Of a stretch of DNA of 19,103 nt, positions 1,164-19,103 are shown one piece after another (within the stretch, counting starts at the first letter, position 1; each line of letters begins with the position of its first letter). Position numbers and translations under genes: made by a program. Source of the stretch: Candidatus Hermodarchaeota archaeon (GTDB lineage Archaea; Asgardarchaeota; Hermodarchaeia; Hermodarchaeales; Hermodarchaeaceae). The DNA lies in assembly GCA_016839365.1 (NCBI GenBank), contig JAEOUH010000002.1:1-19103 (forward strand), read 5' to 3'. Below the pieces are notes generated by a model that worked only from the letters and a program-made list of their open reading frames with translations, was not told the DNA's origin and did not search any database.

Positions 1164-1179
1164 TGTTGTTCATCTTGAG

Positions 1180-1320: not shown

Positions 1321-1518
1321 CTAGTCAGCCTTTCTGACTACAATACTAGCCACTAAGCCAACGAGAAGTCCAATGAGCCAAGCAATAAAAAGGAAGAACG
1401 CATTGTTGGTCAAAATCCAGACGGATGAACCTATCACGAGACCAAAACACATTCCATACAGCATGAATTGTACTACTCTACTCAACTTAGCCATTTCAAC
1501 CAGCATTACATACTTCAA
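1321..1518 (-). CDS. Small two-TM hypothetical protein
   Basis: 65 aa with two hydrophobic helices and a basic C-terminus. Start is uncertain. Confidence 0.5.
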   Translation of the reverse strand: MKYVMLVEMAKLSRVVQFMLYGMCFGLVIGSSVWILTNNAFFLFIAWLIGLLVGLVASIVVRKAD

Positions 1519-1572
1519 AATTCAGACCTTTTAGCGTTAGCATAAAAATTCTTCAATGCTGATTAAGAACGA

Positions 1573-1657
1573 TTTAAATATTAACAACAGGCATAGGAAG
1601 CTTTTGGAAATGGTTTCGCCTCCTTTCTTGAAAAGGCAAACCATTTCCTATAGGAGG
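1573..1657 (+). promoter_or_regulatory. TATA box, 5'-leader hairpin and RBS of the peptide ABC operon
   Basis: TTTAAATA at 1573-1580. Inverted repeat GGAAATGGTTTCGCCT (1606-1621) / AGGCAAACCATTTCC (1634-1648). AGGAGG at 1652-1657 before TTG 1668. Confidence 0.65.
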
Positions 1658-1667
1658 AAACTTCAAT

Positions 1668-3389: not shown

Positions 3390-3470
3390 GTAACAACCAT
3401 AAACCTAAACTAAGACTTGTTTGGAACTGATGACACCCACATTTTCTTTGGTAAACAGGTGGGAAATCAA

Positions 3471-4481
3471 ATGTCACTAAAATCATACGTTGTCACCCGC
3501 ATCCTACTGGCTATCCCGATGGTTTTATTACTCCTGACATTCGTGTTCTTCGTCATCCGAGTTATGCCTGGTGACCCAGCACTATTGCATTTTGAGCGGC
3601 GAGTGGATCCTGCTGCCCTTGCTGAATTTCGGAGGCGTTTAGGATTGGATCAGCCCATTCCCATTCAGTATATCACTTATCTTGGGGGGCTTTTTGTCGG
3701 CAATTTCGGACTATCGATGCAGGACTTTTCACCTATTGTAGATCACCTTATCGCAAGGTTTCCTGCAACACTCGAATTGGCCATCTATTCCATGCTATTT
3801 GCGGTCATACTCGGAATCATCCTTGGAGTTTTTTCCTCGAAGAGATATGATTCTACTACCGATCATTCAATCAGACTTTTCGGTATTATAACCTACGCTA
3901 TTCCAGTATTTTTCTTGGGTATGATCTTGCAGCTTATCTTTGCAGTATGGCTGAGAGTATTACCTTCGGGGACTAGATTTGATCCACACTACGTCCCACC
4001 ACCACGTATAACGGGTCTCTATACAATTGATAGCCTTTTAACTGGCAATTTATGGGCGTTCATGGTCTCTGTGCGATATCTTATACTTCCTACTGTCACT
4101 TTGGGTCTCGTGCTTTGTGGGATTTTTATTCGTTTGACCCGAACCAACATGATTGAGACACTTCGAAAAGACTTCGTCGTCGCAGCAGAAGCCAGAGGTC
4201 TTTCAGACTCAAGAATCACTTATCAGTATGCACTCAGGAATGCATTTCTCCCAATCTTGACAATGATTGGCCTCCAATTCGCTGTTCTTCTTGCTGGAGC
4301 TGTTCTTACTGAGACCACCTTCAGTTGGCCAGGTCTAGGAACTTATATTGTTGATCGAATTGCGCATCGAGACTACACAGCTATTCAAGGCACTGTCGTG
4401 TTTTATGCAATCTTGGTAGCTGTTGTTACTTTGATAGTCGACCTTCTATACGCGGCTTTTGATCCCCGAATAAGATTCTAA
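3471..4481 (+). CDS. dppB: Peptide ABC transporter permease
   Basis: 'MPGDPA', 'LGLDQPIPIQY', 'RFPATLELA', EAA-type loop 'DFVVAAEARGLS' and C-terminal 'DPRIRF'. Start set at ATG 3471 after AGGTGG. Confidence 0.95.
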   Translation: MSLKSYVVTRILLAIPMVLLLLTFVFFVIRVMPGDPALLHFERRVDPAALAEFRRRLGLDQPIPIQYITYLGGLFVGNFGLSMQDFSPIVDHLIARFPATLELAIYSMLFAVILGIILGVFSSKRYDSTTDHSIRLFGIITYAIPVFFLGMILQLIFAVWLRVLPSGTRFDPHYVPPPRITGLYTIDSLLTGNLWAFMVSVRYLILPTVTLGLVLCGIFIRLTRTNMIETLRKDFVVAAEARGLSDSRITYQYALRNAFLPILTMIGLQFAVLLAGAVLTETTFSWPGLGTYIVDRIAHRDYTAIQGTVVFYAILVAVVTLIVDLLYAAFDPRIRF

Positions 4482-4490
4482 GAGTGGATA

Positions 4491-5759
4491 ATGATGGGGA
4501 AAAGCATAACGATTAGCGGTGTATTCATCTACCTGAGACTTGTTCAAGAATCCTTCCGGGATCGGTCAAAACTTTGGTGGATTGTATTAGGAGTAATATT
4601 GGGGGGCACAATAGCTTTAGTTGCCAGTCTGATAATATTAGCTGCAAGGTCCAATAGTGGTTTGGGAATTCCGGTTGTCGTAGGGACTATACTATTCGGA
4701 GTGTCTATGCTAGTTGTGGGTTTATTCCGGACTCTTTTGATTCGCAAGGGAACCTTCTCACCAAGAATGGGAACGCTGTTTCTAGTTGGTGTTACTTGTA
4801 TACTTGGAGTCATCACTATTCCTGTGAGCATTTTCATTCTTCCCGCCGGTTGGTTTGATCTTTGGACAGTATTTGTAATGGGTGGCGTTGCAATAGGCAT
4901 TATCCTACTCTTTCTCTACTCCAGATATTCGTGGTTGAAAGAAAGGGGTTCTCCTGGCTTTCTGACCATCACGGGTTTCTTGATGGTACTTTCTATCATC
5001 TATATGACCGTTATCTCTTACTGGATTGTGCCTTATGATCCCGCCGCCATCAATGTTGGACCAATCTTGTGGCCTCCCCACCCTGGCTTCCCCTTAGGAA
5101 CCACGTCGTTAGGACAGGACTTACTCAGTAGAACCATTGCCGGTGGTGGAATCATGTTACAGGTGGCATTTCTTTCGGTATTGATTTGTTTCTTTGTTGG
5201 GGTTCCATTGGGGCTTCTCTCCTCATTTAGGGGTGGAGCCCTTGACCGAGTTCTATCACTTATCATGGATGCTATCTTTGCTTTCCCCGGTCTGATTCTA
5301 GCAATCGCCATTGCTGCAATGCTTGGCCCAGGCGTTATTAACATGGCTTTGGCAATTGCGGTCGTATACATCCCTTCCTACTTCAGGGTACTCCGGAGCC
5401 AAGTTCTTACAATCAAAGAACTCCCTTATGTCGAGGCCGCGAAAGCCTTGGGTGCTAGAGATCGAGACACCATGCTTCGATATGTCCTTCCTAACTCTTT
5501 ACCCTCAATCATTGTCGTGATGTCGATTAATTTCGCAGATGCTGTTCTCACTGCTGCGGGATTAACATTTGTTGGATTGGGCCTTCCGATCGATGTTGCC
5601 GATTGGGGATGGGATTTGACATTTGGCTGGCATCAACTAATAACTGGCGCGTGGTGGGTGATTACTTTCCCTGGAATTATGATTGTCCTTCTTGCCTTAG
5701 GATTTACTTTGGTTGGTGAAGGACTTAATGAAATACTTACACCGATGCTTAAGGAATAG
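4491..5759 (+). CDS. dppC: Peptide ABC transporter permease with N-terminal membrane extension
   Basis: 'PLGTTSLGQDLLSR', 'YVEAAKALGA' and 'WWVITFPG', plus about 150 extra hydrophobic residues at the N-terminus. Confidence 0.93.
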   Translation: MMGKSITISGVFIYLRLVQESFRDRSKLWWIVLGVILGGTIALVASLIILAARSNSGLGIPVVVGTILFGVSMLVVGLFRTLLIRKGTFSPRMGTLFLVGVTCILGVITIPVSIFILPAGWFDLWTVFVMGGVAIGIILLFLYSRYSWLKERGSPGFLTITGFLMVLSIIYMTVISYWIVPYDPAAINVGPILWPPHPGFPLGTTSLGQDLLSRTIAGGGIMLQVAFLSVLICFFVGVPLGLLSSFRGGALDRVLSLIMDAIFAFPGLILAIAIAAMLGPGVINMALAIAVVYIPSYFRVLRSQVLTIKELPYVEAAKALGARDRDTMLRYVLPNSLPSIIVVMSINFADAVLTAAGLTFVGLGLPIDVADWGWDLTFGWHQLITGAWWVITFPGIMIVLLALGFTLVGEGLNEILTPMLKE

Positions 5760-5765
5760 ACAGAA

Positions 5766-6776
5766 ATGCCAACCCTTCTTGAAATCCACAACTTGTCCAT
5801 TGAATATAAAACGCGGTTGGGCACCGCCCGGGCAGTGGATAATGTTTCCATAACTCTGGACGAGAATAAAACCCTTGGTCTTGCAGGGGAATCCGGTTGT
5901 GGAAAATCAACTTTGGGGCGATCGATTATCCGACTTGTTCCTTATCCTGGTCGCATACTTGAAGGTGAAATTCTTCTCAACCTTGATGAGGATGTACCGT
6001 ATGAGAATGGTGTCGTCGAGAAGGGCCAAATAAATCTCCTGCAGCTTGATGGTGACCAGATGCGGGCACTTCGAGGCAAAAAACTCGCTTATATCTTTCA
6101 AGACCCTATGACCTCCCTGAACCCAATGGAAAGAATTGGAAAACACTTTGTTGAGATCATAAAAGCACACGAACCAGACACTCCCAAGGAAGATGCACAA
6201 GTCAGAACAAAAGATCTCCTGGAGGCATTAGATATTCTTCCTGAACGTGTCTTAGACTACCCCCACCAGTTCAGTGGAGGGATGCGCCAACGCGTGATGA
6301 TCGGTTTAGGACTTACTTTGACACCCCAGCTGTTGATTGCCGATGAGCCGACTACTTCCCTCGATGTAATCGTGGAGGCGCAGATTCTAAATCTAATCTC
6401 AGATCTCAAAGACAAGTTCAATCTTACTATGATGTTAATTACGCATAATTTGGGAGTATTGGCTGAAACAGCCGATAGTATCGCAATCATGTACACTGGT
6501 AGAATCATGGAAGTAGCTCCGACTGAGGCATTGTTCGAGTCTCCCCAGCACCCTTATACACAGGCCTTACTTCAATCAGTTCCCGATGTCAGAAAACCGG
6601 ATAGAAAACTTTCTTGGATTCCTGGGTCACCCCCCAGCCTCACCGAACCTATCCCGGGATGCATGTTTAGACCGCGATGTCCACATGCTATGGAAATTTG
6701 TGCAACGGAGCCACCCCCGCTGATGAAGAGTACATCAGGTGGGATCGTTGCATGCTATCTCTATGAGGGATCGTAA
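5766..6776 (+). CDS. dppD: Peptide ABC transporter ATP-binding protein
   Basis: Walker A GESGCGKS, signature FSGGMRQR, LLIADEPTT, HPYT and a C-terminal Cys cluster. Confidence 0.96.
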   Translation: MPTLLEIHNLSIEYKTRLGTARAVDNVSITLDENKTLGLAGESGCGKSTLGRSIIRLVPYPGRILEGEILLNLDEDVPYENGVVEKGQINLLQLDGDQMRALRGKKLAYIFQDPMTSLNPMERIGKHFVEIIKAHEPDTPKEDAQVRTKDLLEALDILPERVLDYPHQFSGGMRQRVMIGLGLTLTPQLLIADEPTTSLDVIVEAQILNLISDLKDKFNLTMMLITHNLGVLAETADSIAIMYTGRIMEVAPTEALFESPQHPYTQALLQSVPDVRKPDRKLSWIPGSPPSLTEPIPGCMFRPRCPHAMEICATEPPPLMKSTSGGIVACYLYEGS

Positions 6777-6778
6777 CT

Positions 6779-7759
6779 ATGCCATTAATCGAAGTAAAAA
6801 ATGTCATGAAGCATTTTCCGGTTCAGAAAGGCTTCCTTGATACCCTTTTTACCAGGCAAAAAGAATTCGTCAAAGCAGTAGATGGCGTTTCCTTTGAAAT
6901 AGAAGAAGGAGAAGTGTTTGGCCTTGCAGGAGAGAGTGGCTCAGGTAAAACGACTATGGGACGACTGATCGTACGATTGATAGACCCCACAGCCGGTCAA
7001 ATTCTCTTTGCAGGCCAAGACATAGCCACGATCCGCGGAAAGCAATTACGATTATTAAAGCGGAGACTTCAGTTCACGTTTCAAGATCCTTATTCTTCAC
7101 TCAATCCGCGATTGACCATCGGGAACGCTATTGCTGATGCGCTACGGCTCCAAGGGATTGGTAACAAGAGTGAACAGAAGCAGCGAACAATGAAAATTCT
7201 AGAACGAGTTGGCCTTTCCCCCGCTAGCTCTTTTTATGATAGGCTGCCTCATCAACTTAGTGGCGGGCAAAGGCAGAGAGTTGTGTTTGGAAGAGCCATC
7301 ATTCTCGAACCTAAATTTGTTGTCACTGATGAACCGGTTGCGATGGTAGATGTGTCAGTGCGAGCGCAGATTTTGGAGCTCATGAAAGATTTACAGGATG
7401 AATATAGCCTGACTTATCTTTTCATCTCTCATGATCTTGCCACGGCTCGGCATATCTGTGACCGGATTGGTATTATGTACCTAGGAAAGATAGTAGAGAT
7501 TGCTGATAAAGACCGAATCTATACGGATTCCCTTCATCCGTATACTGTTAGTCTAATGGCTGCAATACCTGTGCCAGATCCCAAGGCGAAGAAGGGAGAG
7601 GCGCTTCCTAAGGGAGAGATTCCCAGTCCCATTAATCCTCCCTCTGGATGCAACTTTCATCCTCGCTGTCCTAGAACCTTCGAACGATGCGCGGAGGAAG
7701 AACCCGCGCTCCGTGAAGTTAAGAAGGAGCATTGGGTTGCCTGTCATCTATATGATTAA
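6779..7759 (+). CDS. dppF: Peptide ABC transporter ATP-binding protein
   Basis: [24 protein letters not shown] and '[11 protein letters not shown]...VACH'. Confidence 0.96.
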
Positions 7760-7786
7760 TCTCTCTATCATCTCAAATCGAGCAGA

Positions 7787-7804
7787 TTGGTCGTCCACCA
7801 CAAC
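7787..7804 (+). repeat. Intergenic repeat copy R1 (short, first copy of the array)
   Basis: TTGGTCGTCCACCACAAC, starting 28 nt after the dppF stop. Confidence 0.7.
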
Positions 7805-7928
7805 TTCGCAGATGACACTATGGTAGTGTTCATTTCACAGGGGTTTTTCCACTTGCTGAAAAGTAATTGACCCACAACCATGAGTTTTTAAAGACTCACC
7901 AAACGAGTGTCTGAAGGAGATTTACAGA

Positions 7929-8507
7929 TTGAACGAAATACCACCTCATGACGCCATGTTCCTTCTTGATCAACAAAAATGTGTGGTAAATGATTTTGAT
8001 GCCTCAGGATGGATTCTTGATATCGGTGGAGGTGGTGAGGGTGTTATTGGACGCCTCAAAGGTTCCAACGTCATAGCCATCGACATTAGGCGCGATGAAC
8101 TGGTTGAAGCTCCAGCCGGACCCTTAAAACTAATAATGGATGCGACCGACCTCCAATTCCTTGACCACACCTTCGACACAGTCACCGCCTTCTTCTCCCT
8201 CATGTATTTCAACCACGATACCCGCCCTCAAGTTTTCCACGAGGTACACCGCGTCCTCACATCCGGGGGCAAATTCCACCTATGGGACGTTACGATTCCG
8301 CCCCCAACGGATCCCTCAAAACGCGTGTTCGCCGTCCCCCTTACCATCCACCTCCCCCATGAAACAATCCAAACCGGTTATGGCGTCACCTGGCAACACC
8401 GCGAGCAAACCCTCGACGACTACCTCCAACTCGCTCAAGAAACTGGACTTAAGGTGGTCTCCCAAGAAACCACCGAACACCTCTTCTACATAGAATTCAA
8501 AAAATAA
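7929..8507 (+). CDS. Class I SAM-dependent methyltransferase
   Basis: 'ILDIGGGGEG', 'VIAIDI', 'MDATDLQF.D.TFDTVT' and 'EVHRVLTSGG'. GAAGGAG RBS and TTTTTAAA (7885-7892) upstream. Confidence 0.9.
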   Translation: MNEIPPHDAMFLLDQQKCVVNDFDASGWILDIGGGGEGVIGRLKGSNVIAIDIRRDELVEAPAGPLKLIMDATDLQFLDHTFDTVTAFFSLMYFNHDTRPQVFHEVHRVLTSGGKFHLWDVTIPPPTDPSKRVFAVPLTIHLPHETIQTGYGVTWQHREQTLDDYLQLAQETGLKVVSQETTEHLFYIEFKK

Positions 8508-8524
8508 CAACCATATAATGAAAA

Positions 8525-8618
8525 AAAGTGGTTGCCCACAGCAACGAATCGTCTACAACATCCGTGTTCGCAGCATTACACGACACACCGCATCAGGAAA
8601 CATTGAGCTGTAACGATT
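8525..8618 (+). repeat. Intergenic repeat copy R2 (with inverted right arm)
   Basis: AAAGTGGTTGCCCACAGCAACGAATCGTCTACAACATCCGTGTTCGCAGCAT matches the consensus 44/52 by manual count. GCTGTAACGATT (8607-8618) is a near complement of AATCGTCTACAAC. Confidence 0.9.
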
Positions 8619-8664
8619 AAAAGGAGCCGTTCTCCCTCTATAACTGAATTGGTGTCTTCGGGAG

Positions 8665-9186
8665 GTGAAGAACTTGCAAGATGTTTTCACACAGATATCT
8701 GTGTTCTTAGCTGCGTCGGGCGTAATTATTGCCGTGGTCTACTATTTCTTTTATCTACGAAATCTCGGGAAGACCAGACGATCTGAGACCTTCATGAACC
8801 TATTTACAAACATTAACACTGAAGCATTTCATAAAGCCGATCTGTTGGTCCAGTATGTCGAGTATTCCGATTACGCCGACTTTAAGAAACGCTACGGACC
8901 CTTTTCGGCGCAAAAGCCAATTCATGTGGCTATTCGTACAATTTCTTATTACTTTGAGGCCTTGGGCATGTTGATGTATCGGAAACTCGTCGATGAACAA
9001 ATGGTCTGGGACACGTTTCAAATCAAACACCGGTGGGAAAAAGTCGCTCCAATTGTTAAAGAGCTCCGAAAAGAACTCAATGAACCTCGCTATATCGAAT
9101 GGTTTGAATATCTCTACAACTGGCAACTGAAACAGGAAACGAAACGAAAAGTTAGACAACAACCAATTTACATTTTAGAATCGTAG
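8665..9186 (+). CDS. Membrane-anchored hypothetical protein, DUF4760-like
   Basis: N-terminal TM helix. The pattern 'YYFEALGMLMYRKLVD..MV...WEKVAPIVKELR....YIEWFEYLY' resembles DUF4760 proteins. GGAG/GTG start. Confidence 0.7.
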   Translation: MKNLQDVFTQISVFLAASGVIIAVVYYFFYLRNLGKTRRSETFMNLFTNINTEAFHKADLLVQYVEYSDYADFKKRYGPFSAQKPIHVAIRTISYYFEALGMLMYRKLVDEQMVWDTFQIKHRWEKVAPIVKELRKELNEPRYIEWFEYLYNWQLKQETKRKVRQQPIYILES

Positions 9187-9239
9187 ACACGGCGTTCAAA
9201 ACCGATTATTGCTATCTTAACCTATCACCATCTTGTTCA

Positions 9240-9267
9240 GTGGAAAATCGTCCAAACCTATGATCTA
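9240..9267 (+). repeat. Possible highly degenerate repeat copy R3
   Basis: GTGGAAAATCGTCCAAACCTATGATCTA retains TCGTCCA...GATC at the expected intergenic position. Confidence 0.3.
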
Positions 9268-9424
9268 TTTGCTTTTCTCTTCAGCGGCTTCGTTGGATTA
9301 CACTACCGCGTACTAGCTGGCTGACAGTTACTGATACAACGAGAGTAATAACCGAAGGGCCTATTGATTTTAATCCGGGTGTTCGGTTAGTGTATCCTAT
9401 CACAAATTCAAGGATGCATACATC

Positions 9425-10081
9425 ATGAGCTGTTGTCAGTGCCGAGTTCTCGACGCGACATTCGATCGGAACCTTGCCGAATCCGAACTCAAACACTATC
9501 GGGAAAAGGGCATGAAAAAAACTACCCGCCTGCTTGTTGACGCCCTCAAAAGCCAAGGAGTCCGGGGAAAAACCTTACTTGATATTGGCGGGGGTATCGG
9601 CGCAATTCAGCACGAATTACTCCAATCCGGGGTTCGGCACAGCATCAACGCCGAAGCTTCTCTGGCTTATATTGAGGCCACAAAAGAGGAGGCAACGCGA
9701 CAAGGTCATGCAGATCGCATAAGCCATCATCATGGCGATTTCGTCGATATTGCCAACACTCTCTCTCCTGCCGATATTGTCACCCTCGACAAGGTCATCT
9801 GTTGTTACGATGATTGGCAAGGTCTCGTCAGACAATCTTCCGCACTTGCTCGCACCTTCTATGGCATCGTCATCCCTCGAATGAATTTGATGAGCAAACT
9901 ATACAACGGGTTGGAAAATTTCACTCTATGGCTGCGACGCCAGCCCTTTCGAACCCTTATCCACCCTGTTGACGCAATTGATACCATGCTGCAAAACAAC
10001 GGCTTCAAACAACACCTCCATCAAAACACCTTGGTTTGGCATATGAAAGTCTATGTCCGCGACGCAACACCAGATAGATGA
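9425..10081 (+). CDS. Class I SAM-dependent methyltransferase (BchM-like family) with N-terminal MSCCQC
   Basis: 'LLDIGGGIGA', 'HGDFVD' and 'ADIVTLDKVICCY'. Confidence 0.9.
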   Translation: MSCCQCRVLDATFDRNLAESELKHYREKGMKKTTRLLVDALKSQGVRGKTLLDIGGGIGAIQHELLQSGVRHSINAEASLAYIEATKEEATRQGHADRISHHHGDFVDIANTLSPADIVTLDKVICCYDDWQGLVRQSSALARTFYGIVIPRMNLMSKLYNGLENFTLWLRRQPFRTLIHPVDAIDTMLQNNGFKQHLHQNTLVWHMKVYVRDATPDR

Positions 10082-10082
10082 C

Positions 10083-10115
10083 TGGTCGTCCATCCCGACA
10101 GATCGTACAGCACCC
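10083..10115 (+). repeat. Intergenic repeat copy R4
   Basis: TGGTCGTCCATCCCGACAGATCGT (21/24 to consensus) followed by ACAGCACCC. It starts one base after the methyltransferase stop. Confidence 0.85.
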
Positions 10116-10147
10116 CCTGGTCCACTCGTCCCGAGTAGTTTCTCTGC

Positions 10148-10642
10148 TTATTCTTTCCCTTTACGTCGAACATGATAGGCAAGCACAAACATCACCAACG
10201 TCACGACTGTACCAATAACCAATGAAATAACATAGTAGAGCAGGAGCAGTTCACCCATGAGCAGAAAATAGCGTGTAATGAAATACATGAGAATCCAATA
10301 AATGGGACTGGAAATCAGACCCGGTGAATACTCACGTAACACAATCGTTTGCAGGAAATGCCAGACCCCATTCGTCACAAACATAAAGGCCAAACTCAAC
10401 GGCCAGATTACCCAAATCCCCCCAAACAACTCAAACACGACGATGCTCGCCACCAACACCAGAAGAATCATGAAATTAAACCCAAAGAACATCCCCCAGG
10501 AAGCCTTCAGATAAAACGTCTTGCGCATCATCCCAAGGAACCCCTCACCAACTGCTGCCTCCTCAATCACATGCACACAAAACGCCATCGCATACCCCCA
10601 AAATAACACACTCAATGTAATCTCCATCACTGCAATAACCAC
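10148..10642 (-). CDS. HXXEE-domain membrane protein (copy 1)
   Basis: 'HVIEE', 'NGVWH', 'YSPGLISS' and about 5 TM helices. Confidence 0.9.
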   Translation of the reverse strand: MVIAVMEITLSVLFWGYAMAFCVHVIEEAAVGEGFLGMMRKTFYLKASWGMFFGFNFMILLVLVASIVVFELFGGIWVIWPLSLAFMFVTNGVWHFLQTIVLREYSPGLISSPIYWILMYFITRYFLLMGELLLLYYVISLVIGTVVTLVMFVLAYHVRRKGKE

Positions 10643-10740
10643 CTACCAACACTCACAGGCATAAACGCCAACTCCTAAAAAAAGCCTAGCAAAACGAATC
10701 AAATCACGTACTCCCCCCCTCTAAGCCTCTGACAAAGAAA

Positions 10741-10775
10741 AAACGTTAATCCACAGCAACGGATCGTACTACACC
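10741..10775 (+). repeat. Intergenic repeat copy R5
   Basis: An A-tract, then AAACGTTAATCCACAGCAACGGATCGTACTACACC. Shares the AGCAAC variant with R2 and R8. Confidence 0.7.
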
Positions 10776-10836
10776 AACGGTTCAGGCTCAACGACTCTGA
10801 CTTAATGTGAAAGATAGTAAGTATTCTCTTGTTCTC

Positions 10837-11466
10837 CTACATATGTTCCAGCTCCTTAGTGGGCGGAAACAGTGCGAGTTTTCTATCAATTTCATCGATT
10901 AAAGGAAGGATTCCTCTAAGATCTCTGAGGGTTTTGAGGCGACCTTTGGCAAAAATCTCATATTCAAACTGATGATAGAGTGAGTAAAAATAGGATTCAG
11001 TGTATACGGCGTCGTTGAAGTGGCTGCAAAGCCCCCTGAGCGAGATTAGTCCCCTATAAGTTGAATCTACTAACATCATAAGGGAGACAAACATACCACT
11101 CAGAAAGTTAGGATTCCCGTATTCATCTGCCGGCGTATCTTTTTCTTCTAGAAAGGCGTTTAGTGCTTTTTTCTTTCCGTTTTTCCATTCTTTGGGCTCT
11201 TTCTCCCACTCATGGAGAGTAAAATATGCAGGAAGCACTAAGAGCATCTCCTCTGCCAAGGATTCAGGTAACTGCTCTTGCAGCTGATAGACCAGAGGAA
11301 AAATCGCTCTCATCACGGTTGTGAATCCCTGAACACCTTCTTGACGAGTCGGATACTCCTTCTCCAAAAAAGCCCGTATTTTCGGCACATACTCCCTGGC
11401 AAAAAATGTGACCAAGTATGGGATTTGTTCGGGCTTCACTCTTTTTCCATGCAAGAACTGCGACAT
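10837..11466 (-). CDS. Hypothetical protein (soluble, probably helical)
   Basis: 209 aa ORF with natural composition, GAGGG upstream and a TTTTTAGG box about 40 nt upstream. No family recognised. Confidence 0.7.
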   Translation of the reverse strand: MSQFLHGKRVKPEQIPYLVTFFAREYVPKIRAFLEKEYPTRQEGVQGFTTVMRAIFPLVYQLQEQLPESLAEEMLLVLPAYFTLHEWEKEPKEWKNGKKKALNAFLEEKDTPADEYGNPNFLSGMFVSLMMLVDSTYRGLISLRGLCSHFNDAVYTESYFYSLYHQFEYEIFAKGRLKTLRDLRGILPLIDEIDRKLALFPPTKELEHM

Positions 11467-11557
11467 ACGAAACCCTCTATTCGAGAATAATTTCTTTGAA
11501 AAATCCTAAAAACCTCAGTAATTTCCTCTGACAGCTTTCTACAATTTTTACATTTAT

Positions 11558-11577
11558 ACGTTAGTCCACTCAATTGA
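11558..11577 (+). repeat. Possible highly degenerate repeat copy R6
   Basis: ACGTTAGTCCACTCAATTGA resembles R5 (ACGTTAATCCAC) and lies at the expected intergenic position. Confidence 0.3.
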
Positions 11578-11641
11578 AGAGACATTAAGTAAGCTTTATT
11601 CTAAGTCCCTCTTAAGGAAAACCTTGCCTTGGGGTCATTTA

Positions 11642-12466
11642 ATGGAAAAATATTCAATTACTGATTATAACGAGGAACTTGAAACCACGATAAATTTACC
11701 TGAACGAATCAATCAAGCTATGCAAATCTTTGATTTGTTCCTTGGCTTACTTGTACAAGAAAATCCTGAAAAAACGCCACGATTTATCCAATTACTAGAA
11801 AACCGATTCGAGGAATTCGATACTGAAAGGTTTAATGATGTTTTCCGAGTGAAGTCTGAGACGTTCACAGGTCCCCTGAAAGAGCATCTCCAACTCATAA
11901 AACTAGGTCAACGGGTCCTACTTTCATTTCTTAAATTCCGAAATTATAGAGACCAACAAGATATTACAAGCTTGCGTGTGGCATTCAAGGATTTTCTTCG
12001 CTGTTTTCATTTCTTTAATTTTTGGCTAGCACAGACATTGACTACCATCATGTCAAAGTCCAAAGCTATTGAATTTTTCAAACGGTTTGTCGAATATCGA
12101 ACACCAATTATTGAGGCCGGAAGTAAATTTCCGAATATAGATTTGTTATATGAACGATCGATGAATTTCCTATCAACTGGCACACATAACGGGACACTAC
12201 TCAAAACACAAGATGGCGTAATCTGCATAAAAATCACAAGATGCATGTGGCATGAAATAATGGAAGAGTTCAAAGACCCAGAGTTAGTTTATGTCAATAT
12301 TTGTTATGGGGATTTTGCTGCGGCCAAATGTTACAACGAGCATTTCGTCCTCACACGAACCCAGACCCTGGTACAAGGGAAGCCATATTGCGACTTTTGC
12401 TATCATGACAAACGGATTGACAAAGCCATCATCCACCCCTCCAAGCGATTTTTCGATGAACTTTAG
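11642..12466 (+). CDS. L-2-amino-thiazoline-4-carboxylic acid hydrolase family protein
   Basis: C-terminal 'ITRCMWHE...ICYGDF...LTRTQTLVQGKPYCDFCY' Cys pattern of the ATC_hydrolase family. ATG 11642 preferred over TTG 11624. Confidence 0.85.
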   Translation: MEKYSITDYNEELETTINLPERINQAMQIFDLFLGLLVQENPEKTPRFIQLLENRFEEFDTERFNDVFRVKSETFTGPLKEHLQLIKLGQRVLLSFLKFRNYRDQQDITSLRVAFKDFLRCFHFFNFWLAQTLTTIMSKSKAIEFFKRFVEYRTPIIEAGSKFPNIDLLYERSMNFLSTGTHNGTLLKTQDGVICIKITRCMWHEIMEEFKDPELVYVNICYGDFAAAKCYNEHFVLTRTQTLVQGKPYCDFCYHDKRIDKAIIHPSKRFFDEL

Positions 12467-12484
12467 CAAGACTCACATTATACG

Positions 12485-12536
12485 AAATTATTCGTCCACC
12501 CCCAAACTGCCAATCATCGAAGTGAATAACGGATCC
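12485..12536 (+). repeat. Intergenic repeat copy R7 (interrupted)
   Basis: AAATTATTCGTCCACCCCCAAAC, with AACGGATC reappearing about 20 nt later. Confidence 0.55.
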
Positions 12537-12600
12537 AGGAAGGAACTGAAGACTTTTAATAGAAGAATCCGTGCATGGTAACGCGGAGGGTTTCTTCGGA

Positions 12601-13332
12601 ATGCTTTACATCCTTGAAACACCATTACATTTTGGACTCCTACTCATCAGCTGGATCCTTCTCTTGCTGTTCGTCTTGGTAGGTTTTTACGACACGTCTA
12701 CTAAGGAAAAACGCTTGGCTAACGTTTGGCTTAATTTCATAACGATCTTCTTTCTGTTTTTCGCCTTTTCCGTTCTCTTGATCATGATCTATCAACTTCC
12801 TGCCGCCGCCACCGCTGATCAACTCCTGCCCTACTTCATGGCCTTATGGTCATGTTATGCAGTGTACGGCTTCTTTGCGATTTTCACTTCGTTGAGCACT
12901 GACTTCCTCAAGGCGCCGATTTGGCTTCGCTACCTGTTCCTTATTGGCACGATTTCTTTCCTCGCCCTACTCTGGTTCTTAGTCACCCCAGCGACCATCT
13001 TCCTGGTCTTCGACGGGGCCATGAACTGGCTCGCTATGCCTCTGGTTCTCCTAGCCTATGGCGGATTCCTCTGGTTCATCTACCTACTTCTCTTTCCCTT
13101 CTTTCTCACCTATCGGGTCAACAAAACCCGACAACACCCCATTAAGACGGGCAACTGGATCGTCTGGGTTGGCGGGGTCATCGTCGACATCGGCGCCCTA
13201 CTAATCGCCTTGGTTCTCTTCCTCGCTCCATATACGCTCATTGCCCTAAGCATCATCGTCATCGGCATGGTGATTCTCTTCATCGGCGGTATCATCAACT
13301 ACCGCGCTAAACCACCGACACCCGAACCCTAA
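12601..13332 (+). CDS. Hypothetical integral membrane protein (about 7 TM)
   Basis: Seven hydrophobic segments. ATG 12601 follows GGAGG, with TTTTAATA at 12554-12561. Confidence 0.8.
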   Translation: MLYILETPLHFGLLLISWILLLLFVLVGFYDTSTKEKRLANVWLNFITIFFLFFAFSVLLIMIYQLPAAATADQLLPYFMALWSCYAVYGFFAIFTSLSTDFLKAPIWLRYLFLIGTISFLALLWFLVTPATIFLVFDGAMNWLAMPLVLLAYGGFLWFIYLLLFPFFLTYRVNKTRQHPIKTGNWIVWVGGVIVDIGALLIALVLFLAPYTLIALSIIVIGMVILFIGGIINYRAKPPTPEP

Positions 13333-13441
13333 TCCTATATCTGCCCGCAAGCCCACCAAACAGCTTCCGGGCTCCTCTCTTTTTTTATCATCCTTTTCTG
13401 AAACAGCTCAGATTCACCAAACTAGACTATCAAGAACATTA

Positions 13442-13568
13442 TGTCAAAGCAACTGCCGGTCTAAAACACCCGTATTTTCACCAAAATCACCCAGCTCTCT
13501 TTCCACACATATGTCTCCCACGGTATTCTGCGAGGACACCTCAGAAGAAAATGAGGTCTAAGTTTAGG
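13442..13568 (+). repeat. Intergenic repeat copy R8 (long form)
   Basis: TGTCAAAGCAACTGCCGGTCTAAAACACCCGTATTTTCACCAAAATCACCCAGCTC, then AGGACACCTCAGAAGAAAATGA (13533-13554), which is shared with R13. Confidence 0.8.
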
Positions 13569-13664
13569 CTCAGCTGCCTTTGAAGAAAAAGCGGTATCGT
13601 CTTTTACAGGAATATGAACTCTAGAGTACACGTCACCCTGCATTGATGATTTAATAAACACGGG

Positions 13665-14246
13665 ATGAGTACTATGATTATGAGCCAGCTCAAAAAGGGG
13701 TTATCACCACAACAACGTGCAGAACTACTCCGCGTGTTGAAGGTCCGGTTTGAGAACAACCTGCACCGCCATAAAGGGGTTGAATGGGCTAACATCCAAA
13801 CAAGGCTGGAAGCGAACCCTGACAAACTGTGGTCCCTCAACGAAATGGAACGAACCGGCGGGGAACCAGATGTAGTTGGTCATGACAAAAAGACGGGCGA
13901 ATACATCTTCTATGATTGTTCACCAGAAACTCCAACAGGCCGCAGAAATGTCTGCTACGACCGCGAAGCGCAGGAAGCACGGAAAACCGCGAAACCCAAA
14001 AATAACGCCATCGATATGGCCGCTGCCATGTGTATTGAGCTTCTCACCGAAGACCAATATCGCACGTTACAGAAACTCGGAAAGTTCGATACAAAGACAT
14101 CAAGCTGGATTAAAACCCCGTTGGATATCAGAAAACTTGGTGGCGCGCTCTTTTGTGATTGCCGATACAACACCGTTTTCGTGTATCACAACAGTGCCCC
14201 CTCCTACTATAGTTCTCGGGCGTTCCGTGGCTCGCTACGAGTCTAA
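13665..14246 (+). CDS. DUF4256 domain-containing protein
   Basis: 'KLWSLNEMERTGGEPDVVG', 'DCSPETPTGRRNVCYD', 'FDTKTSSW', 'IRKLGGALFCD' and 'YYSSRAFRGSLRV' match the highly conserved DUF4256 family. Confidence 0.92.
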   Translation: MSTMIMSQLKKGLSPQQRAELLRVLKVRFENNLHRHKGVEWANIQTRLEANPDKLWSLNEMERTGGEPDVVGHDKKTGEYIFYDCSPETPTGRRNVCYDREAQEARKTAKPKNNAIDMAAAMCIELLTEDQYRTLQKLGKFDTKTSSWIKTPLDIRKLGGALFCDCRYNTVFVYHNSAPSYYSSRAFRGSLRV

Positions 14247-14310
14247 ACTCTGACTTGGACTTTTCACAGCTCATTGATTTTCTCTTTCGATTTTAACGAG
14301 CTGCATTTTG

Positions 14311-14360
14311 ATGGTTACACCCACTGTCCTTCGTGAAGGAACACCCATATTTACCGGCAA
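14311..14360 (+). repeat. Intergenic repeat copy R9a (degenerate)
   Basis: ATGGTTACACCCAC...TCGTGAAGGAACACCCATATTTACCGGCA retains TGGT..CCAC, TCGT and AACACCC(A)T(A)TT. Confidence 0.5.
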
Positions 14361-14363
14361 GCC

Positions 14364-14388
14364 AAATGGTTGGCTACCCCAGTGGATC
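14364..14388 (+). repeat. Intergenic repeat copy R9b, tandem to R9a
   Basis: AAATGGTTGGCTACCCCAGTGGATC matches TGGTCGTCCACCCCAACGGATC at 17/22. Confidence 0.65.
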
Positions 14389-14428
14389 CCGTGGTCTATT
14401 TTTATCGTCTGTTTCACCTTGGGGTAGC

Positions 14429-14923
14429 TTAGGTTTTCATCTGTCGTCGAAAACGATAGGCTAACAAAAACGTTACAAGCGTGATAAGGGTTCCAACAAC
14501 TACCGCGACAAGAAAGTATAGCAGCAGAATTTCACCAGGTACCAAAAAATACCGGACAATAAACCCCATCAGAATCCAATAGATCGGGCTCGTAATGAGA
14601 CCTGGGGCAAATTTTCGGGTCACAATTGTTTGGAGCAGATGCCAGAATCCGTTGGTCACAAACATAAAGGCCAAACTCAACGGCCAAATCACCCAAATCC
14701 CCCCAAACACTTCAAACACCACAATCCCGACAACAAACACGAGAAAAATCATGAGATTAAACCCGAAAAACATCCGACCCGAATACTCCGGATAAAAGGT
14801 GTTCCGCATCATCTCAATGAACCCTTCACCCACGGCTACTTCCTCGATGACATGCACACAGTAGGCCATCACATATCCCCAAAACAAGACGCCCAACGTA
14901 ATCTCCATCATTGAACCAAACAC
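14429..14923 (-). CDS. HXXEE-domain membrane protein (copy 2)
   Basis: 'HVIEE'. Same length (164 aa) as 10148..10642 and about 70% identical by manual ungapped count. Confidence 0.9.
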   Translation of the reverse strand: MFGSMMEITLGVLFWGYVMAYCVHVIEEVAVGEGFIEMMRNTFYPEYSGRMFFGFNLMIFLVFVVGIVVFEVFGGIWVIWPLSLAFMFVTNGFWHLLQTIVTRKFAPGLITSPIYWILMGFIVRYFLVPGEILLLYFLVAVVVGTLITLVTFLLAYRFRRQMKT

Positions 14924-15022
14924 CTACTACTACTCACAGCTATACAATCCTAAAAATAACTTGCATCTTGTTTCAGTCTCGTTAGATAATAGTGAAATTT
15001 CTCTGAAGAGCCATCAATATTG

Positions 15023-15772
15023 TCAAAGATGATGTATTTCTGCTAAAAGTCGTTTAACCGCCTCAGGTTCTCGCTTTACAAGCCGGTTTTTCTTTAGATT
15101 TTTCTCCAATATCTTATCAATGAGTTTGCATTTTCCTATCCATTTCCTCATAAAGGGGAAACCAAGTGTTGGATTGACCGCAACAAATACACTGATAGTG
15201 AATTCTAATCCTTTTTTTAAGACATCAAAATATTCTCCATTATCTATTTGCATCAAGATTACATCGGTGATTTCAAAACAGAATTTCGTTCGTCCCTCAT
15301 TGAGGAATGGGGGATGGGCTAAGGAGACGAGTATGGCTCGCTTTTCCAGATTATTAGCCTCGTCAATCCATTCCGAAAAAATTGTTCTTAATTCGTTAAA
15401 ATCGTGTTCACCAATTATTTGAAAGCCAAAAGCAACGGCTTCTCGCATTCGCCATCGCCCATCATTGGCCAATCGCTTTAAGATTTTGGTAAGGCTCGGG
15501 TCTTTCGTTTTGGTGTAGATTTTTCCCAAGCACACAGCAGCACAGAATGCCAAAAATGACTTAGGATCATTAACATCCGCTTGATCCTCACTGATGTCAG
15601 CCCATTTCAATAAAACATTCACATTCGAATATACCTCTGCCAATGCAAATGCTAATTCCAGATTCCCCCTTGGCCCTGGAAGATTAGAATGCTCAACAAT
15701 AAAGTTCTCTAATCTGACTGTATCACTAATAATTGGTTTTAGTCTACTGACTAACTCCTCTCTTTTTCCCAT
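15023..15772 (-). CDS. HEAT-repeat / AlkD-like helical-repeat protein
   Basis: 'SNLPGPRGNLELAFALA', 'LANDGRWRMREAVAFGFQ' and 'ILEKNLKKNRL'. ATG 15772 preferred. AT-rich. Confidence 0.8.
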   Translation of the reverse strand: MGKREELVSRLKPIISDTVRLENFIVEHSNLPGPRGNLELAFALAEVYSNVNVLLKWADISEDQADVNDPKSFLAFCAAVCLGKIYTKTKDPSLTKILKRLANDGRWRMREAVAFGFQIIGEHDFNELRTIFSEWIDEANNLEKRAILVSLAHPPFLNEGRTKFCFEITDVILMQIDNGEYFDVLKKGLEFTISVFVAVNPTLGFPFMRKWIGKCKLIDKILEKNLKKNRLVKREPEAVKRLLAEIHHL

Positions 15773-15875
15773 ACGCTTAGATTGCACTGCTTTCTATAAA
15801 GAAAATGTGGTGGAATTCTTATTGAAGACGAATATCGGTAAGCGAAACCCCCATGACCCAAAGGCGTGATTAACA

Positions 15876-15940
15876 GAAGTGGTCGTCTGTCCCAATACAT
15901 CGTCTATAACATCTGTGTCCTCAGAATATTCATTCAGTAC
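15876..15940 (+). repeat. Intergenic repeat copy R10
   Basis: GAAGTGGTCGTCTGTCCCAATACATCGTCTATAACATCTGTGTCCTCAGAAT aligns without gaps to the consensus over about 52 nt. Confidence 0.85.
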
Positions 15941-16001
15941 CCCTTGCCACTGGTAATGCAACTGATACTGATTGTCCTTTACAGCGAAGGCCGATTCTAT
16001 G

Positions 16002-16031
16002 AAAAAAAGGAAGGGTGCACTATGCACCCTT
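16002..16031 (-). terminator. Hairpin plus U-tract terminator-like element
   Basis: Perfect 9-bp stem AAGGGTGCA-cta-TGCACCCTT followed on the minus strand by CC-T7, about 60 nt downstream of the stop at 16090. Confidence 0.65.
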
Positions 16032-16089
16032 TAAAAAACAATGTGAGATATGGACGCTCTGGATATACTACAGGCGGTTTTTTGCACAT

Positions 16090-16824
16090 TCATGATTTCT
16101 TGACTCTTCGTTGGAGGATGAAGCCAACCAGAATTAGATACCAGCCAATGGTTAGAGAGCTGACCATCGTCAATGCTAGAGAGCTAAAGAACGAGTCGTA
16201 GCCTGGCAGCATAAACAGGAACCCGCCGAAGAGCAGGGAGATTGCGATAGCCCAGATTAGAGTTCCAAGCATAAAGAGCCAAATCCATAACACTTGGGAT
16301 GCGCCGCCGACCCGCTCCTGTCGGGTATACTGAAATGTCGCAAATAGTGGAATCAAGATCATGAAGAGTATGGCTAAGATTAGCCCTGTCGCAAGCCATG
16401 CATTCCCATACAGAGCGTAAGAAATCGCGTTGGCACTGTACATGAGAGCCTCATAGACGATAAATCCGATGAGAGGAAATATGATAATCCATTTGCGTTC
16501 GTTGAAAAAGGCAGGAAAGGCTAGGATAATCGCATAGATTACAATTAGGAACATATAGAAACCAATCATACCAAAGTCGACATACAGACCCCACAGCGCC
16601 CAAGCGCTATAGGGAAGAATTCCCAGTCGAGTCAACTGAACAACCGTTTGACCAATTAAAACGCTGAGAAAGATGAGAAATCCCAACAGTAAGAGCGTCC
16701 TTTGTCTACCAGAGCTGGTCAAGACGCCCCACAAAGCGAGGACAATCATCAGGACCACGGGAATTAAACCCAGCAGCCCTAAGCTGTGCACAAACATTTC
16801 AAATTGCAACAAAACAGCCTCCAC
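16090..16824 (-). CDS. Hypothetical integral membrane protein (about 7 TM)
   Basis: 244 aa with seven hydrophobic segments and weak motif similarity to 12601..13332. Confidence 0.8.
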   Translation of the reverse strand: MEAVLLQFEMFVHSLGLLGLIPVVLMIVLALWGVLTSSGRQRTLLLLGFLIFLSVLIGQTVVQLTRLGILPYSAWALWGLYVDFGMIGFYMFLIVIYAIILAFPAFFNERKWIIIFPLIGFIVYEALMYSANAISYALYGNAWLATGLILAILFMILIPLFATFQYTRQERVGGASQVLWIWLFMLGTLIWAIAISLLFGGFLFMLPGYDSFFSSLALTMVSSLTIGWYLILVGFILQRRVKKS

Positions 16825-16904
16825 AACCGCGTGCGACCAAACTTATACATAAATTACTAGTATAACAAGTACTTACGCTCTATGCGTTTTTGGATGCAAA
16901 CACC

Positions 16905-17033
16905 ATGAGTTGTTGTCAACGGCAGGTCCTTGAAACCGTCTTTGATCGGGCTGTCGCGGAGACTGAACTCAAACAATATTGAGAGAAGGGCATGAAGCAC
17001 ACCACCCGTCTTCTGGTTGATGCGCTACAAACC
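16905..17033 (+). pseudogene. Truncated 5' fragment of a paralog of methyltransferase 9425..10081
   Basis: MSCCQRQVLETVFDRAVAETELKQY*EKGMKHTTRLLVDALQT versus MSCCQCRVLDATFDRNLAESELKHYREKGMKKTTRLLVDALKS. In-frame TGA at 16980-16982. Confidence 0.92.
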
Positions 17034-17106
17034 TTAGCTAGACCGCTTCTTTCGTTACTTAATTTCATCGAGAAATGAATAGCATCAGCGAAATTACTGT
17101 AAAAAG

Positions 17107-17141
17107 AAAGTGGTCGTCCACCCCAACGGAGCCTCCACTAC
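17107..17141 (+). repeat. Intergenic repeat copy R11
   Basis: AAAGTGGTCGTCCACCCCAACGGA then GCCTCCACTAC, preceded by an A-tract. Confidence 0.9.
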
Positions 17142-17164
17142 CTACTCTCCCGCTCTCTAATGAC

Positions 17165-17686
17165 TTATGTTGAAAACTTGTTGAAACTCGTAATCTTGTC
17201 AATTGACTTCTTTCTTTTGGGTCCTGGAATCTTTGATGGATAACCAAACGGAATGATAGCAACGACATCATATTTGTCAGGGATTTCAAGCAATCGTCTG
17301 ACTTTATCTTCACTAAACGCTCCAATCCAACATGACCCTACTTCTAGCGCCCAGGCCGCAATGACCATGTTTTGCAAAGCGATAGTCGTACTAATGATTG
17401 ACCATCTTCCGGCAAACCGGTCTTTATGGGCACATCCCACAATCGTCACGGGCGCATCCTTAATGAATCGACTAAACAACCCTTTCGCCAATTCTCTCTT
17501 GAGCTCCTCATCCGTTACCACAATGAAGTGCCACGGCTGTTTATTTGCCGCAGACGGAGCCATTCTACCAGCTTCAAGGATTTGGTCAAGAACCTCTTTG
17601 GGAATATCCCTCTTTTCATAATTACGGATGCTTCTTCGACTCAGCAAAGTATCCACTAATGTCACTTTTTTTCCCAACTCAGCCAT
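17165..17686 (-). CDS. Nitroreductase family protein
   Basis: 'SRRSIRNY', 'APSAANKQPWHFIVV', 'LQNMVIAAWALEVGSCWIG' and 'IIPFGYP'. Start at 17686 or 17719. Confidence 0.95.
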   Translation of the reverse strand: MAELGKKVTLVDTLLSRRSIRNYEKRDIPKEVLDQILEAGRMAPSAANKQPWHFIVVTDEELKRELAKGLFSRFIKDAPVTIVGCAHKDRFAGRWSIISTTIALQNMVIAAWALEVGSCWIGAFSEDKVRRLLEIPDKYDVVAIIPFGYPSKIPGPKRKKSIDKITSFNKFST

Positions 17687-17815
17687 ATTGAATGACTCAG
17701 AGATTGAAGGGTCTCGCATAAATCTAACTAATGTCTCAACCAGAGGTATTCACTTAAAATGAAAATGCGAAGAAACTATTCCATACCAGCACGGAAAAGC
17801 CACAAACCAACAAGA

Positions 17816-17916
17816 AAAGTGGTCGTCCACTCCATCTGATCGTTACAATACCCGTGTTTCCGGTTGATACACCCAGCTCCCGTACCGCACAAAACGTCTC
17901 TCAAGGTATGTTAGAT
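17816..17916 (+). repeat. Intergenic repeat copy R12
   Basis: AAAGTGGTCGTCCACTCCATCTGATCGTTACAATACCCGTGTTTCCGGTTGATACACCCAGCTC, with GGTATGTTAGAT ending at 17916. Confidence 0.9.
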
Positions 17917-17960
17917 TTTTATAACATCAATGAATTCAAACCCAATCGAGGTAAATTCCA

Positions 17961-18851
17961 TTGAAAATTAGAGCTGTTAAAGTCATCAGTTTTTCTCCAA
18001 CCGGGGGCTCAAGGAAGGTAGCCGAAGCTATCGCCCAAGGCATCCAAGCCCCCATAGAACACATCGACCTGACTCCACCCAGTGCACGCACCCAGCAATT
18101 TAAGGAATTCACCGATGAGCTCGCCATCATCTCCGTGCCCGTCTACGCCGGACGGGTCCCCACCGAAGCCGCCTACCGGATACGAAGACTCACAGGTAAC
18201 AGGGAACCCTATGGCGCTAAACGGGCACAAAAAATCCCAGCCGTCATTGTCGTCACCTACGGCAACCGCGCCTACGAGGACGCCCTCTATGAACTAGGTG
18301 ACATTGTCTCCGAGGTGGGATTCCAACCCATCGCTGCAGGGGTTTTCCTATGCGAACACTCCTTTAGCGTCCCCGAAGTACCTACAGCCCATGGACGACC
18401 CGACACCAAAGATCTCGCCAAAGCTAAAGCGTTTGGCCAACAGATCCGGGACAAGTATGCACAGGTCGATACCATCGAGGCCCTCTCCCCCGTCACTCCT
18501 CCTGGTACATCGCCATACTCGTTATCCATGCGTGCCAATCTCACCTGGTACGACTACAGCGCATTAGCCACCCCCTCCACCAACGAAGACCAATGCACCA
18601 AATGCGGCACGTGCGTGGACGTCTGCCCCACTGCTGCAATTCGAATCCAACATGTGTCATCCAATCCCTCCCCCATGATCGGATACAACCTGCGGTTGAT
18701 TACCACCGACCATAATGCGTGCATCTGGTGCTGTGCCTGCGTTAAAAACTGTCCCACCGGCGCACGGGTCATGAGCAAACGCGTGCTCAAATCACAAAGC
18801 GACCTACACAAAGGCTACCCCGACCGAAAAGAACCCGAAACCTACCTCTAA
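17961..18851 (+). CDS. EFR1-family ferredoxin (flavodoxin-like N-domain plus two 4Fe-4S clusters)
   Basis: 'FSPTGGS', 'PVYAGRVP', 'TYGNRAYEDAL', 'GRPD', CTKCGTCVDVCP and CIWCCACVKNCP. Confidence 0.93.
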   Translation: MKIRAVKVISFSPTGGSRKVAEAIAQGIQAPIEHIDLTPPSARTQQFKEFTDELAIISVPVYAGRVPTEAAYRIRRLTGNREPYGAKRAQKIPAVIVVTYGNRAYEDALYELGDIVSEVGFQPIAAGVFLCEHSFSVPEVPTAHGRPDTKDLAKAKAFGQQIRDKYAQVDTIEALSPVTPPGTSPYSLSMRANLTWYDYSALATPSTNEDQCTKCGTCVDVCPTAAIRIQHVSSNPSPMIGYNLRLITTDHNACIWCCACVKNCPTGARVMSKRVLKSQSDLHKGYPDRKEPETYL

Positions 18852-18881
18852 CATCCCGCATCCACAAATACCACGAAACAG

Positions 18882-18995
18882 AAAGTGGGCATCCACCTCA
18901 GCCTAGGCCAACACCCGTGTTTCCAGCATCATACACCCGCTCCCATTGCCCACTCCACTCCGAAGTGCCCAAGAAGGACACCTCAAAGGAAATGA
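18882..18995 (+). repeat. Intergenic repeat copy R13 (long form)
   Basis: AAAGTGGGCATCCAC...CAACACCCGTGTTTCCAGCATCATACACCCGCTC...AGGACACCTCAAAGGAAATGA. Confidence 0.9.
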
Positions 18996-19053
18996 TTTCT
19001 TAGGAGGACCGATTCCACAGAAAAAATATACACCTACATTCCAATCACATCTT

Positions 19054-19103
19054 ATGGAATTGCTTGAAGAGCTTAACCAAATCCACACCGAGATTCAATC
19101 AAA
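19054..19103 (+). CDS. Possible start of the next gene (runs off the window)
   Basis: ATG 19054 opens MELLEELNQIHTEIQS, downstream of R13 as for the other units. Too short to verify. Confidence 0.35.
   Translation, partial: MELLEELNQIHTEIQS

Follow-up and report, generated by a model that had tools for sequence, protein, structure and literature searches.

The 19,103-nt contig JAEOUH010000002.1 of a Candidatus Hermodarchaeota archaeon (assembly GCA_016839365.1), referred to here as the window, carries behind a dpp transporter operon a series of small, unrelated genes separated by copies of a degenerate repeat. The locus raises the question of what this repeat is, and by which route genes have come to lie between its copies. 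An earlier note on the window had proposed an integron-like platform for gene capture or shuffling, with a recombination site of its own. Comparison with related genomes shows that the repeat, read in reverse complement, is the trailer of ~135 nt that follows the 16S ribosomal RNA (rRNA) gene and forms there the 3′ arm of the processing stem. The window is the entire contig C1 of a 2.2-Mb Hermodarchaeia metagenome-assembled genome (MAG) of 93 contigs, its dppF being closest to Hermodarchaeia-type Asgard genomes. It is best explained as the distal part of an array growing behind the 16S gene, probably through homing nucleases that replace the 3′ end of that gene.

The reverse complement of the repeat is found 70–135 nt behind the 16S 3′ end in the related genomes G005, G007 and G014 and on several metagenome contigs, and the copy at 18878–19007 extends back to the last five bases of 16S. 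Pairing between trailer and 16S leader in G005 (duplex of −83.6 kcal/mol) accounts for the dyads noticed earlier, and the trailer ends in a hairpin and T-tract. Canonical bulge-helix-bulge (BHB) motifs were not identified in the leader-trailer stem, and an Rfam search of the window matched no family. The repeats are former 16S 3′ ends with their trailers (hereafter orphans, as opposed to the live trailer next to the gene), and in each of them the 3′ end is intact and the 5′ end shortened. Accordingly, 49 of 56 orphans end within 12 nt of the trailer end, while their starts are spread from −61 to +87 relative to the 16S end, 18 of them clustering between −12 and +5 and none extending past position 1513 (E. 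coli numbering throughout, from our own alignment). On contigs anchored at 16S, the orphans follow a decay gradient (rho −0.6 to −1.0). An anti-Shine-Dalgarno remnant serving as Shine-Dalgarno of the next gene was considered and set aside, the four suggestive cases (one in the window, three in relatives) being possible at chance level; a strong Shine-Dalgarno stands before the DUF4760 gene (8661–8668), at a distance of ~140 nt from where the 8521 copy ends, which is the place expected for the 16S end belonging to this copy.

A repeat model built from other genomes, with the window's own genome excluded, recovered eleven copies in the window, of which seven are solid (E 1e-5 to 1e-25), two probable and two weak, and both trailer types, A and B, are represented (Table 1, E values for the window). 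The unit reaches ~135 nt with its sense on the minus strand, as opposed to the 65-nt plus-strand repeat described before. Of the positions listed in the earlier note, 8525, 10083, 13442, 15876, 17107, 17816 and 18882 correspond to solid copies, 7787 and 10741 to probable and 12485 and 14364 to weak ones, whereas 9240, 11558 and 14311 are unsupported. All supported copies are intergenic and share one orientation, and none lies in 1–7759, as had been stated. The other 92 contigs of the genome contain no copy. Furthermore, the repeat was found in 12 of 14 congeneric genomes, with 111 of 111 copies on 28 contigs co-oriented within their contig. A 15-mer scan of all genomes gave mostly chance matches and was rejected, and a different contig, G000:C57, holds two pairs of 107–128-nt direct repeats ~3 kb apart (7029–11281). 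A regulatory motif or miniature inverted-repeat transposable element (MITE) unrelated to gene capture might account for the terminator-like hairpin score at the 3′ end of four copies, but it is scarcely credible for a repeat with a single locus, a single orientation and homology to the 16S trailer.

As the repeat is the 16S trailer, the array must be anchored at a 16S gene beyond base 19103. In this MAG the 16S gene is unassembled, as in all but three of the 15 genomes of the genus, so that the link to it is drawn from relatives. The dpp operon, previously taken as the anchor, is not, because in G002 it lies inside the array with copies on both sides. The expectation that the array continues past the window is borne out at the contig end, where a gene begins at 19054 that G011 and G013 carry as a cassette. 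A winged-helix regulator and membrane protein pair occupies 164–1163; in G002, ~14 kb of former cargo lies between this pair and dpp, and the variable region therefore reaches left of dpp.

The genes between the repeats behave as cassettes. All 13 cargo genes have homologues in the arrays of congeneric species, with other neighbours, and no neighbour pair of the window recurs elsewhere in the same order. Between one repeat and the following one, the flavodoxin unit shares 93.7% identity with its counterpart in G007, and stretches common to different arrays often begin or end at repeats. The junction with the repeat is specific to the unit and travels with the gene, and crossover points, read by eye, fall at differing places within the repeat. 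Cargo genes thus move between species as units bounded by orphans, and the proposal of single-gene units whose order is reshuffled at the repeats stands, the breaks in gene order among relatives falling where it had predicted. The rule of mostly one gene per interval is retained in weaker form: without the copies at 9240 and 11558 the window has three two-gene intervals, while 47 of 79 intervals across arrays are single-gene. Two HXXEE paralogues (10146–10445 and 14427–14726, 73% DNA identity) occur in this one array, which suggests repeated entry of one cassette family. Read mapping gave one contig joint skipping 17843–18931, exactly one cassette; its short side spans only 21 nt, so that the joint may derive from the repeat of another organism, and it was not counted. 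PADLOC detected no defence genes among ten proteins.

Single-gene intervals, co-oriented sites and reshuffled order would also be expected of an integron-like array, or one of dif modules, equipped with a dedicated site and recombinase, and a XerA is encoded elsewhere in the genome, off the array. Nevertheless this interpretation is very improbable. A pattern test found no attC box pair on either strand at 11 copies, and no conserved 28-bp 11-6-11 site marks the boundaries, in agreement with the absence of attC and dif layouts already noted; the best 11-6-11 dyad is a variable hairpin whose form depends on the trailer type and which many orphans have lost, and the remaining dyads belong to the rRNA processing stem. 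Genes lie on both strands (55 versus 61), and the head of the array is occupied by the 16S gene rather than an IntI integrase. A dedicated recombination site is thus not upheld, the repeat being a 16S trailer with a variable 5′ boundary and no linked integrase. Integrons and CALINs (clusters of attC sites lacking integrases), archaeal ones included (Ghaly et al., 2022, PMC9668308), share with the array its polarity, mostly single accessory genes, co-oriented sites and orders differing among relatives, and differ from it in having IntI, attC and a site other than a host rRNA processing arm with variable junctions.

Tandem integration of integrase-bearing elements or satellites at the 16S 3′ end, as at tRNA genes, followed by decay to single genes, would produce a direct-repeat layout resembling attL and attR, and HeimM2 and HeimV2 occupy this site in Ca. 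Heimdallarchaeum (Wu et al., 2022, PMC8813620). Known tandem islands at RNA-gene 3′ ends combine an integrase with a fixed crossover. Here, the 5′ boundaries are not fixed, and tyrosine recombinases (PF00589) were not detected on the array contigs of 15 genomes or in the complete genomes G042 and G238, both with orphans, in a search that did not extend to serine recombinases, IS110 or HUH nucleases; this route is accordingly regarded as improbable. Reverse transcriptases were not found in 14 of the 15 genomes, the nine matches in the remaining MAG lying off the array contigs, and an RNA-based route was therefore dropped.

A different class of enzyme occupies the head of the array. Contigs of six strains extend to 16S, and in all six an antisense gene for a LAGLIDADG protein of ~210 amino acids, with 74–100% identity across ten clusters, is the first to follow the live trailer (a position termed slot 1). 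The protein (209 aa) contains two motifs and no other domain, its predicted structure resembles I-DmoI (predicted local distance difference test 91.5, Foldseek E 1e-8), and the first catalytic Asp is invariant and the second nearly so. None of the viral contigs encodes this nuclease. Each of the six genes is followed by a near-perfect orphan starting in the helix-45 loop, and all six strains carry, after 16S position 1513, a 59–60-nt intron lacking an open reading frame (ORF). In a tree of 52 homologues the slot-1 proteins fall within a clade of 99/96 support, whose five intron-encoded members, from DPANN-type archaea, are all located at 1513. The ORF-less 1513 intron is present in eight of eight free-standing members of this clade with a visible 16S end (the six Hermodarchaeia strains, Atabeyarchaeia-1 and L282/L283). 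In Atabeyarchaeia-1 the nuclease gene has an internal stop and is followed by an orphan starting at 1513; Atabeyarchaeia-2 has no intron, nuclease or orphan.

The alleles before and after such an event can be compared directly. G005 and L257 share 99.7% identity over a stretch of 2390 nt, and the point at which they diverge is precisely 1513. Their live trailers are only 68% alike, while the orphan behind the nuclease is 89–91% like the G005 trailer; that is, it starts at 1513 and matches the trailer of the intronless allele. The orphan of L258 carries the G005-type 1519 intron and then the end of the G005 slot-1 gene. The 16S 3′ end has therefore been replaced from 1513 onward. Together, these comparisons argue strongly that the free-standing LAGLIDADG protein cuts intronless 16S alleles at 1513/1514, in helix 45, and the ORF-less intron would protect its carriers from cutting. 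Hermodarchaeia 16S genes (3.6 kb in G005) otherwise contain many insertions, LAGLIDADG-type ORFs being present in several of them, and have short introns near 1391, 1513 and 1519 (L239 = G005:C71 619–4212; L229 1–1460).

A second gene, F22, takes the same slot in other alleles. It encodes 419 aa, falls into twelve clusters with 43–100% identity, and is antisense and first behind the trailer in three of three cases (G005/L255, G007 and L389), the orphan behind it starting at −8 to −3. F22 has no Pfam match and no sequence match in the PDB. However, an invariant PD..ECK motif and the predicted fold of its C-domain, with middling scores against the restriction-type nucleases MspJI (Z 7.3, root-mean-square deviation 4.0, 138 aligned) and AspBHI (Z 6.8), make it look like a PD-(D/E)XK-type nuclease, and less firmly than for the LAGLIDADG protein, it may act on 16S in the same way, close to the very end of the gene. 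Both states are held by GCA_016840185.1, one with intron, trailer A and LAGLIDADG and the other with trailer B, F22 and no intron. A remnant of F22 at 17036–17102 is the only direct nuclease trace in the window. In G014, two fresh trailer copies and an F22 remnant open a 33-kb contig (L234, G014:C19, 81–1341) separate from the 16S contig of the same MAG, which may be the allele of a second strain.

Homing that replaces the 16S 3′ end, with the old tails acting as homology arms for cargo exchange, is probably the process by which the array arises, by analogy with the yeast WHO elements described below. Cleavage in helix 45 would separate the 16S body, on the left, from a 26-nt exon and the trailer, on the right. 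Repair from a protected donor, with the 16S body as left arm, would copy the intron, the new tail and the slot-1 gene and then anneal at the first orphan of the donor as right arm, so that the former tail of the recipient would become a new orphan and the array would grow at its head. Annealing at a later orphan would bring along cargo without nuclease, and homologous recombination between orphans would shuffle or delete units; a gene might first gain a tail, as a guess, by end-joining after one-sided repair. Breaks would thereby drive cargo gain. A broader version holds that two unrelated free-standing nucleases alternately overwrite the 3′ end of the sole 16S gene, each tied to its own trailer type, the discarded tails forming an integrase-free, head-growing capture platform in several Asgard classes; this is offered tentatively, as possible rather than probable.

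Plain homologous recombination, between 16S on one side and an orphan tail or microhomology joint on the other, would explain why most units lack a nuclease, why crossovers look, by eye, spread along the repeat and why junctions vary and travel with their gene, the nucleases merely exploiting an existing landing pad; several classes also have arrays with no slot-1 nuclease detected. On the other hand, it leaves unexplained that intron homing sites mark the starts of the freshest orphans (1513 in Hermodarchaeia and Atabeyarchaeia; −42, near another intron site, in three Thorarchaeia-like copies) as well as the clustering of 18 starts around the 16S end, and is considered unlikely, although the most serious of the alternatives.

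Several observations weigh against the homing interpretation. The association of nuclease and intron (7/0 versus 3/4, p about 0.035) was ascertained on the nuclease and its rows are related, and three intron-bearing alleles have no nuclease. In H. aukensis, the nuclease belongs to another clade and lies behind an orphan, and the 16S gene is intronless; in the arrays of G127, G238, G053, G237 and G016 no slot-1 LAGLIDADG was found. The decay gradient is absent in some contigs and the fold scores of F22 are only middling. In the MAG of the window neither nuclease is intact and 16S is unassembled. Long 16S duplications may, in addition, be missing through instability or assembly collapse.

The closest functional parallel is provided by the WHO elements of Torulaspora and Lachancea at FBA1, for which homing that replaces the host 3′ end was proposed (Coughlan et al., 2020, PMC7282813). 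In both systems a nuclease gene lies downstream of an essential host gene, the old host end is pushed downstream as a second homology arm, the newest element is nearest the host, and the host gene shows discordance between its 5′ and 3′ parts. The order of nuclease and then duplicate of the host 3′ end is present in relatives, the window having a remnant only, and replacement from the predicted cut site is seen in the 1513 break between G005 and L257. Unlike WHO, the host is an archaeal rRNA gene and the nuclease is a bare, monomeric LAGLIDADG protein, not an intein-zinc finger fusion related to HO; an ORF-less intron would provide immunity, most of the array is cargo other than nucleases, and a PD-(D/E)XK-type gene uses the same slot. 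By this analogy the slot-1 system works like WHO without being a member of that family. Collaborative homing by F-CphI and the psbA intron of cyanophage S-PM2 (PMC6083498) likewise involves a nuclease that is free-standing and adjacent to its target gene, self-protection coming from a separate intron in the cut site, but pairs a group I intron with an Endo VII motif where the present system has a BHB-type rRNA intron and LAGLIDADG; here, moreover, the 3′ end duplicated per event builds an array.

HeimM2 also has an rRNA-type homing endonuclease and is inserted immediately after the only 16S gene of its Asgard host, and a duplicated 16S tail was found inside it in the present analysis. The accessible part of its description presents a single 8-kb element and makes no mention of tail duplication, array, target site or intron immunity; its nuclease is of another clade. 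Archaeal 16S BHB introns with LAGLIDADG nucleases (Jay and Inskeep, 2015, PMC4496867) share the enzyme class, short hairpin introns and co-conversion of neighbouring introns, whereas sites 1513 and 1519 are not among the loci in the accessible text of that paper and the nuclease gene lies outside the intron here. In a literature search of incomplete coverage, neither arrays of this kind nor rRNA-associated elements resembling WHO were encountered, and HeimM2 is the nearest archaeal report. Target-site phylogeny, intron association, before/after alleles and F22 were tested in this analysis.

H. aukensis, Freyarchaeia, two Thorarchaeia-like genomes, G237 and a second Hermodarchaeia genus likewise have orphan tails behind 16S; nine further Asgard genomes showed none in the 3–17 kb that were read. 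A Thorarchaeia-like array (L319 1–8100, G127:C9) consists largely, by ORF reading, of PIN-type toxin-antitoxin-like pairs and has two orphans with an identical junction at −42. In Freyarchaeia (L320–L321, G053), the live 16S tail is separated by a 7241-aa ORF from three orphans located 27–30 kb downstream. A Heimdall-type 16S gene (L352 115–883) has a short intron near 1499 and is directly followed by a free-standing LAGLIDADG gene of the H. aukensis clade with no orphan visible.

Table 1. Features of the window, in order of position.
Feature	Position	Strand	Evidence or occurrence
dpp/opp ABC transporter operon; older, distal part of variable region	1668–7759	+	comparison with G002
Probable oldest orphan trailer, adjoins dppF	7783–7818	-	E 0.017; box score expected 0.01 times per window; weak match at equivalent place in G002
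S-adenosylmethionine (SAM) methyltransferase (cargo)	7929–8507	+	
Orphan trailer, 3′ half	8521–8580	-	E 6e-8
DUF4760 protein (cargo)	8665–9186	+	
SAM methyltransferase (cargo)	9425–10081	+	present in 5 other arrays
Orphan trailer, 3′ part	10078–10114	-	E 1.4e-5
HXXEE membrane protein (cargo)	10148–10642	-	73% DNA identity to 14429 gene
Probable orphan trailer	10739–10791	-	E 0.0095
Protein without family (cargo)	10837–11466	-	
ATC-hydrolase-domain protein (cargo)	11624–12466	+	
Weak orphan trailer remnant	12484–12509	-	expected 0.23 times by chance
Membrane protein, no family (cargo)	12571–13332	+	
Orphan trailer, type A; 5′ part present, 3′ box gone	13459–13560	-	E 3e-11
DUF4256 protein (cargo)	13665–14246	+	
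Weak orphan trailer remnant (3′ box)	14362–14388	-	expected 0.11 times by chance
HXXEE membrane protein (cargo)	14429–14923	-	
Protein without Pfam match (cargo)	15023–15787	-	
Degenerate orphan trailer	15875–15949	-	E 9e-7; also in G002
Membrane protein, no family (cargo)	16090–16824	-	
Methyltransferase 5′ fragment (paralogue of 9425) with stop codon, joined to F22 remnant	16905–17035	+	intact beside same membrane gene in G002
67-nt remnant of F22 3′ end, directly behind 17102 copy as in G007	17036–17102	+	83.6% over 67 nt; E 8e-13 against whole genome
Orphan trailer, only 3′ 40 nt	17102–17143	-	E 3e-7
Nitroreductase (cargo)	17165–17719	-	
Orphan trailer, type A, 5′-truncated at +36	17812–17909	-	E 6e-23; junction common to G007
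Flavodoxin/4Fe-4S protein, EFR1-like (cargo)	17961–18851	+	unit 93.7% identical in G007, different neighbour
Youngest orphan 16S tail: last 5 nt of 16S (anti-Shine-Dalgarno), full type-B trailer, T-tract	18878–19007	-	E 9.5e-26 (model match 18878–19002)
Start of next cargo gene (family F52), cut by contig end	19054–19103	+	cassette in G011, G013

For genome studies, the array has the practical consequence that its 16S loci break assemblies, as the low number of assembled 16S genes in the genus illustrates, and that the 3′ end of 16S moves laterally together with its trailer. If the model is true, an integrase-free route of gene gain would exist in the archaeal lineage closest to eukaryotes, anchored at the most conserved gene of the cell, and homing of the WHO type would be extended from yeast to archaea and to rRNA, joined with intron-based immunity. 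As two enzymes with base-level target predictions are named, the model is testable in vitro without culturing the host.

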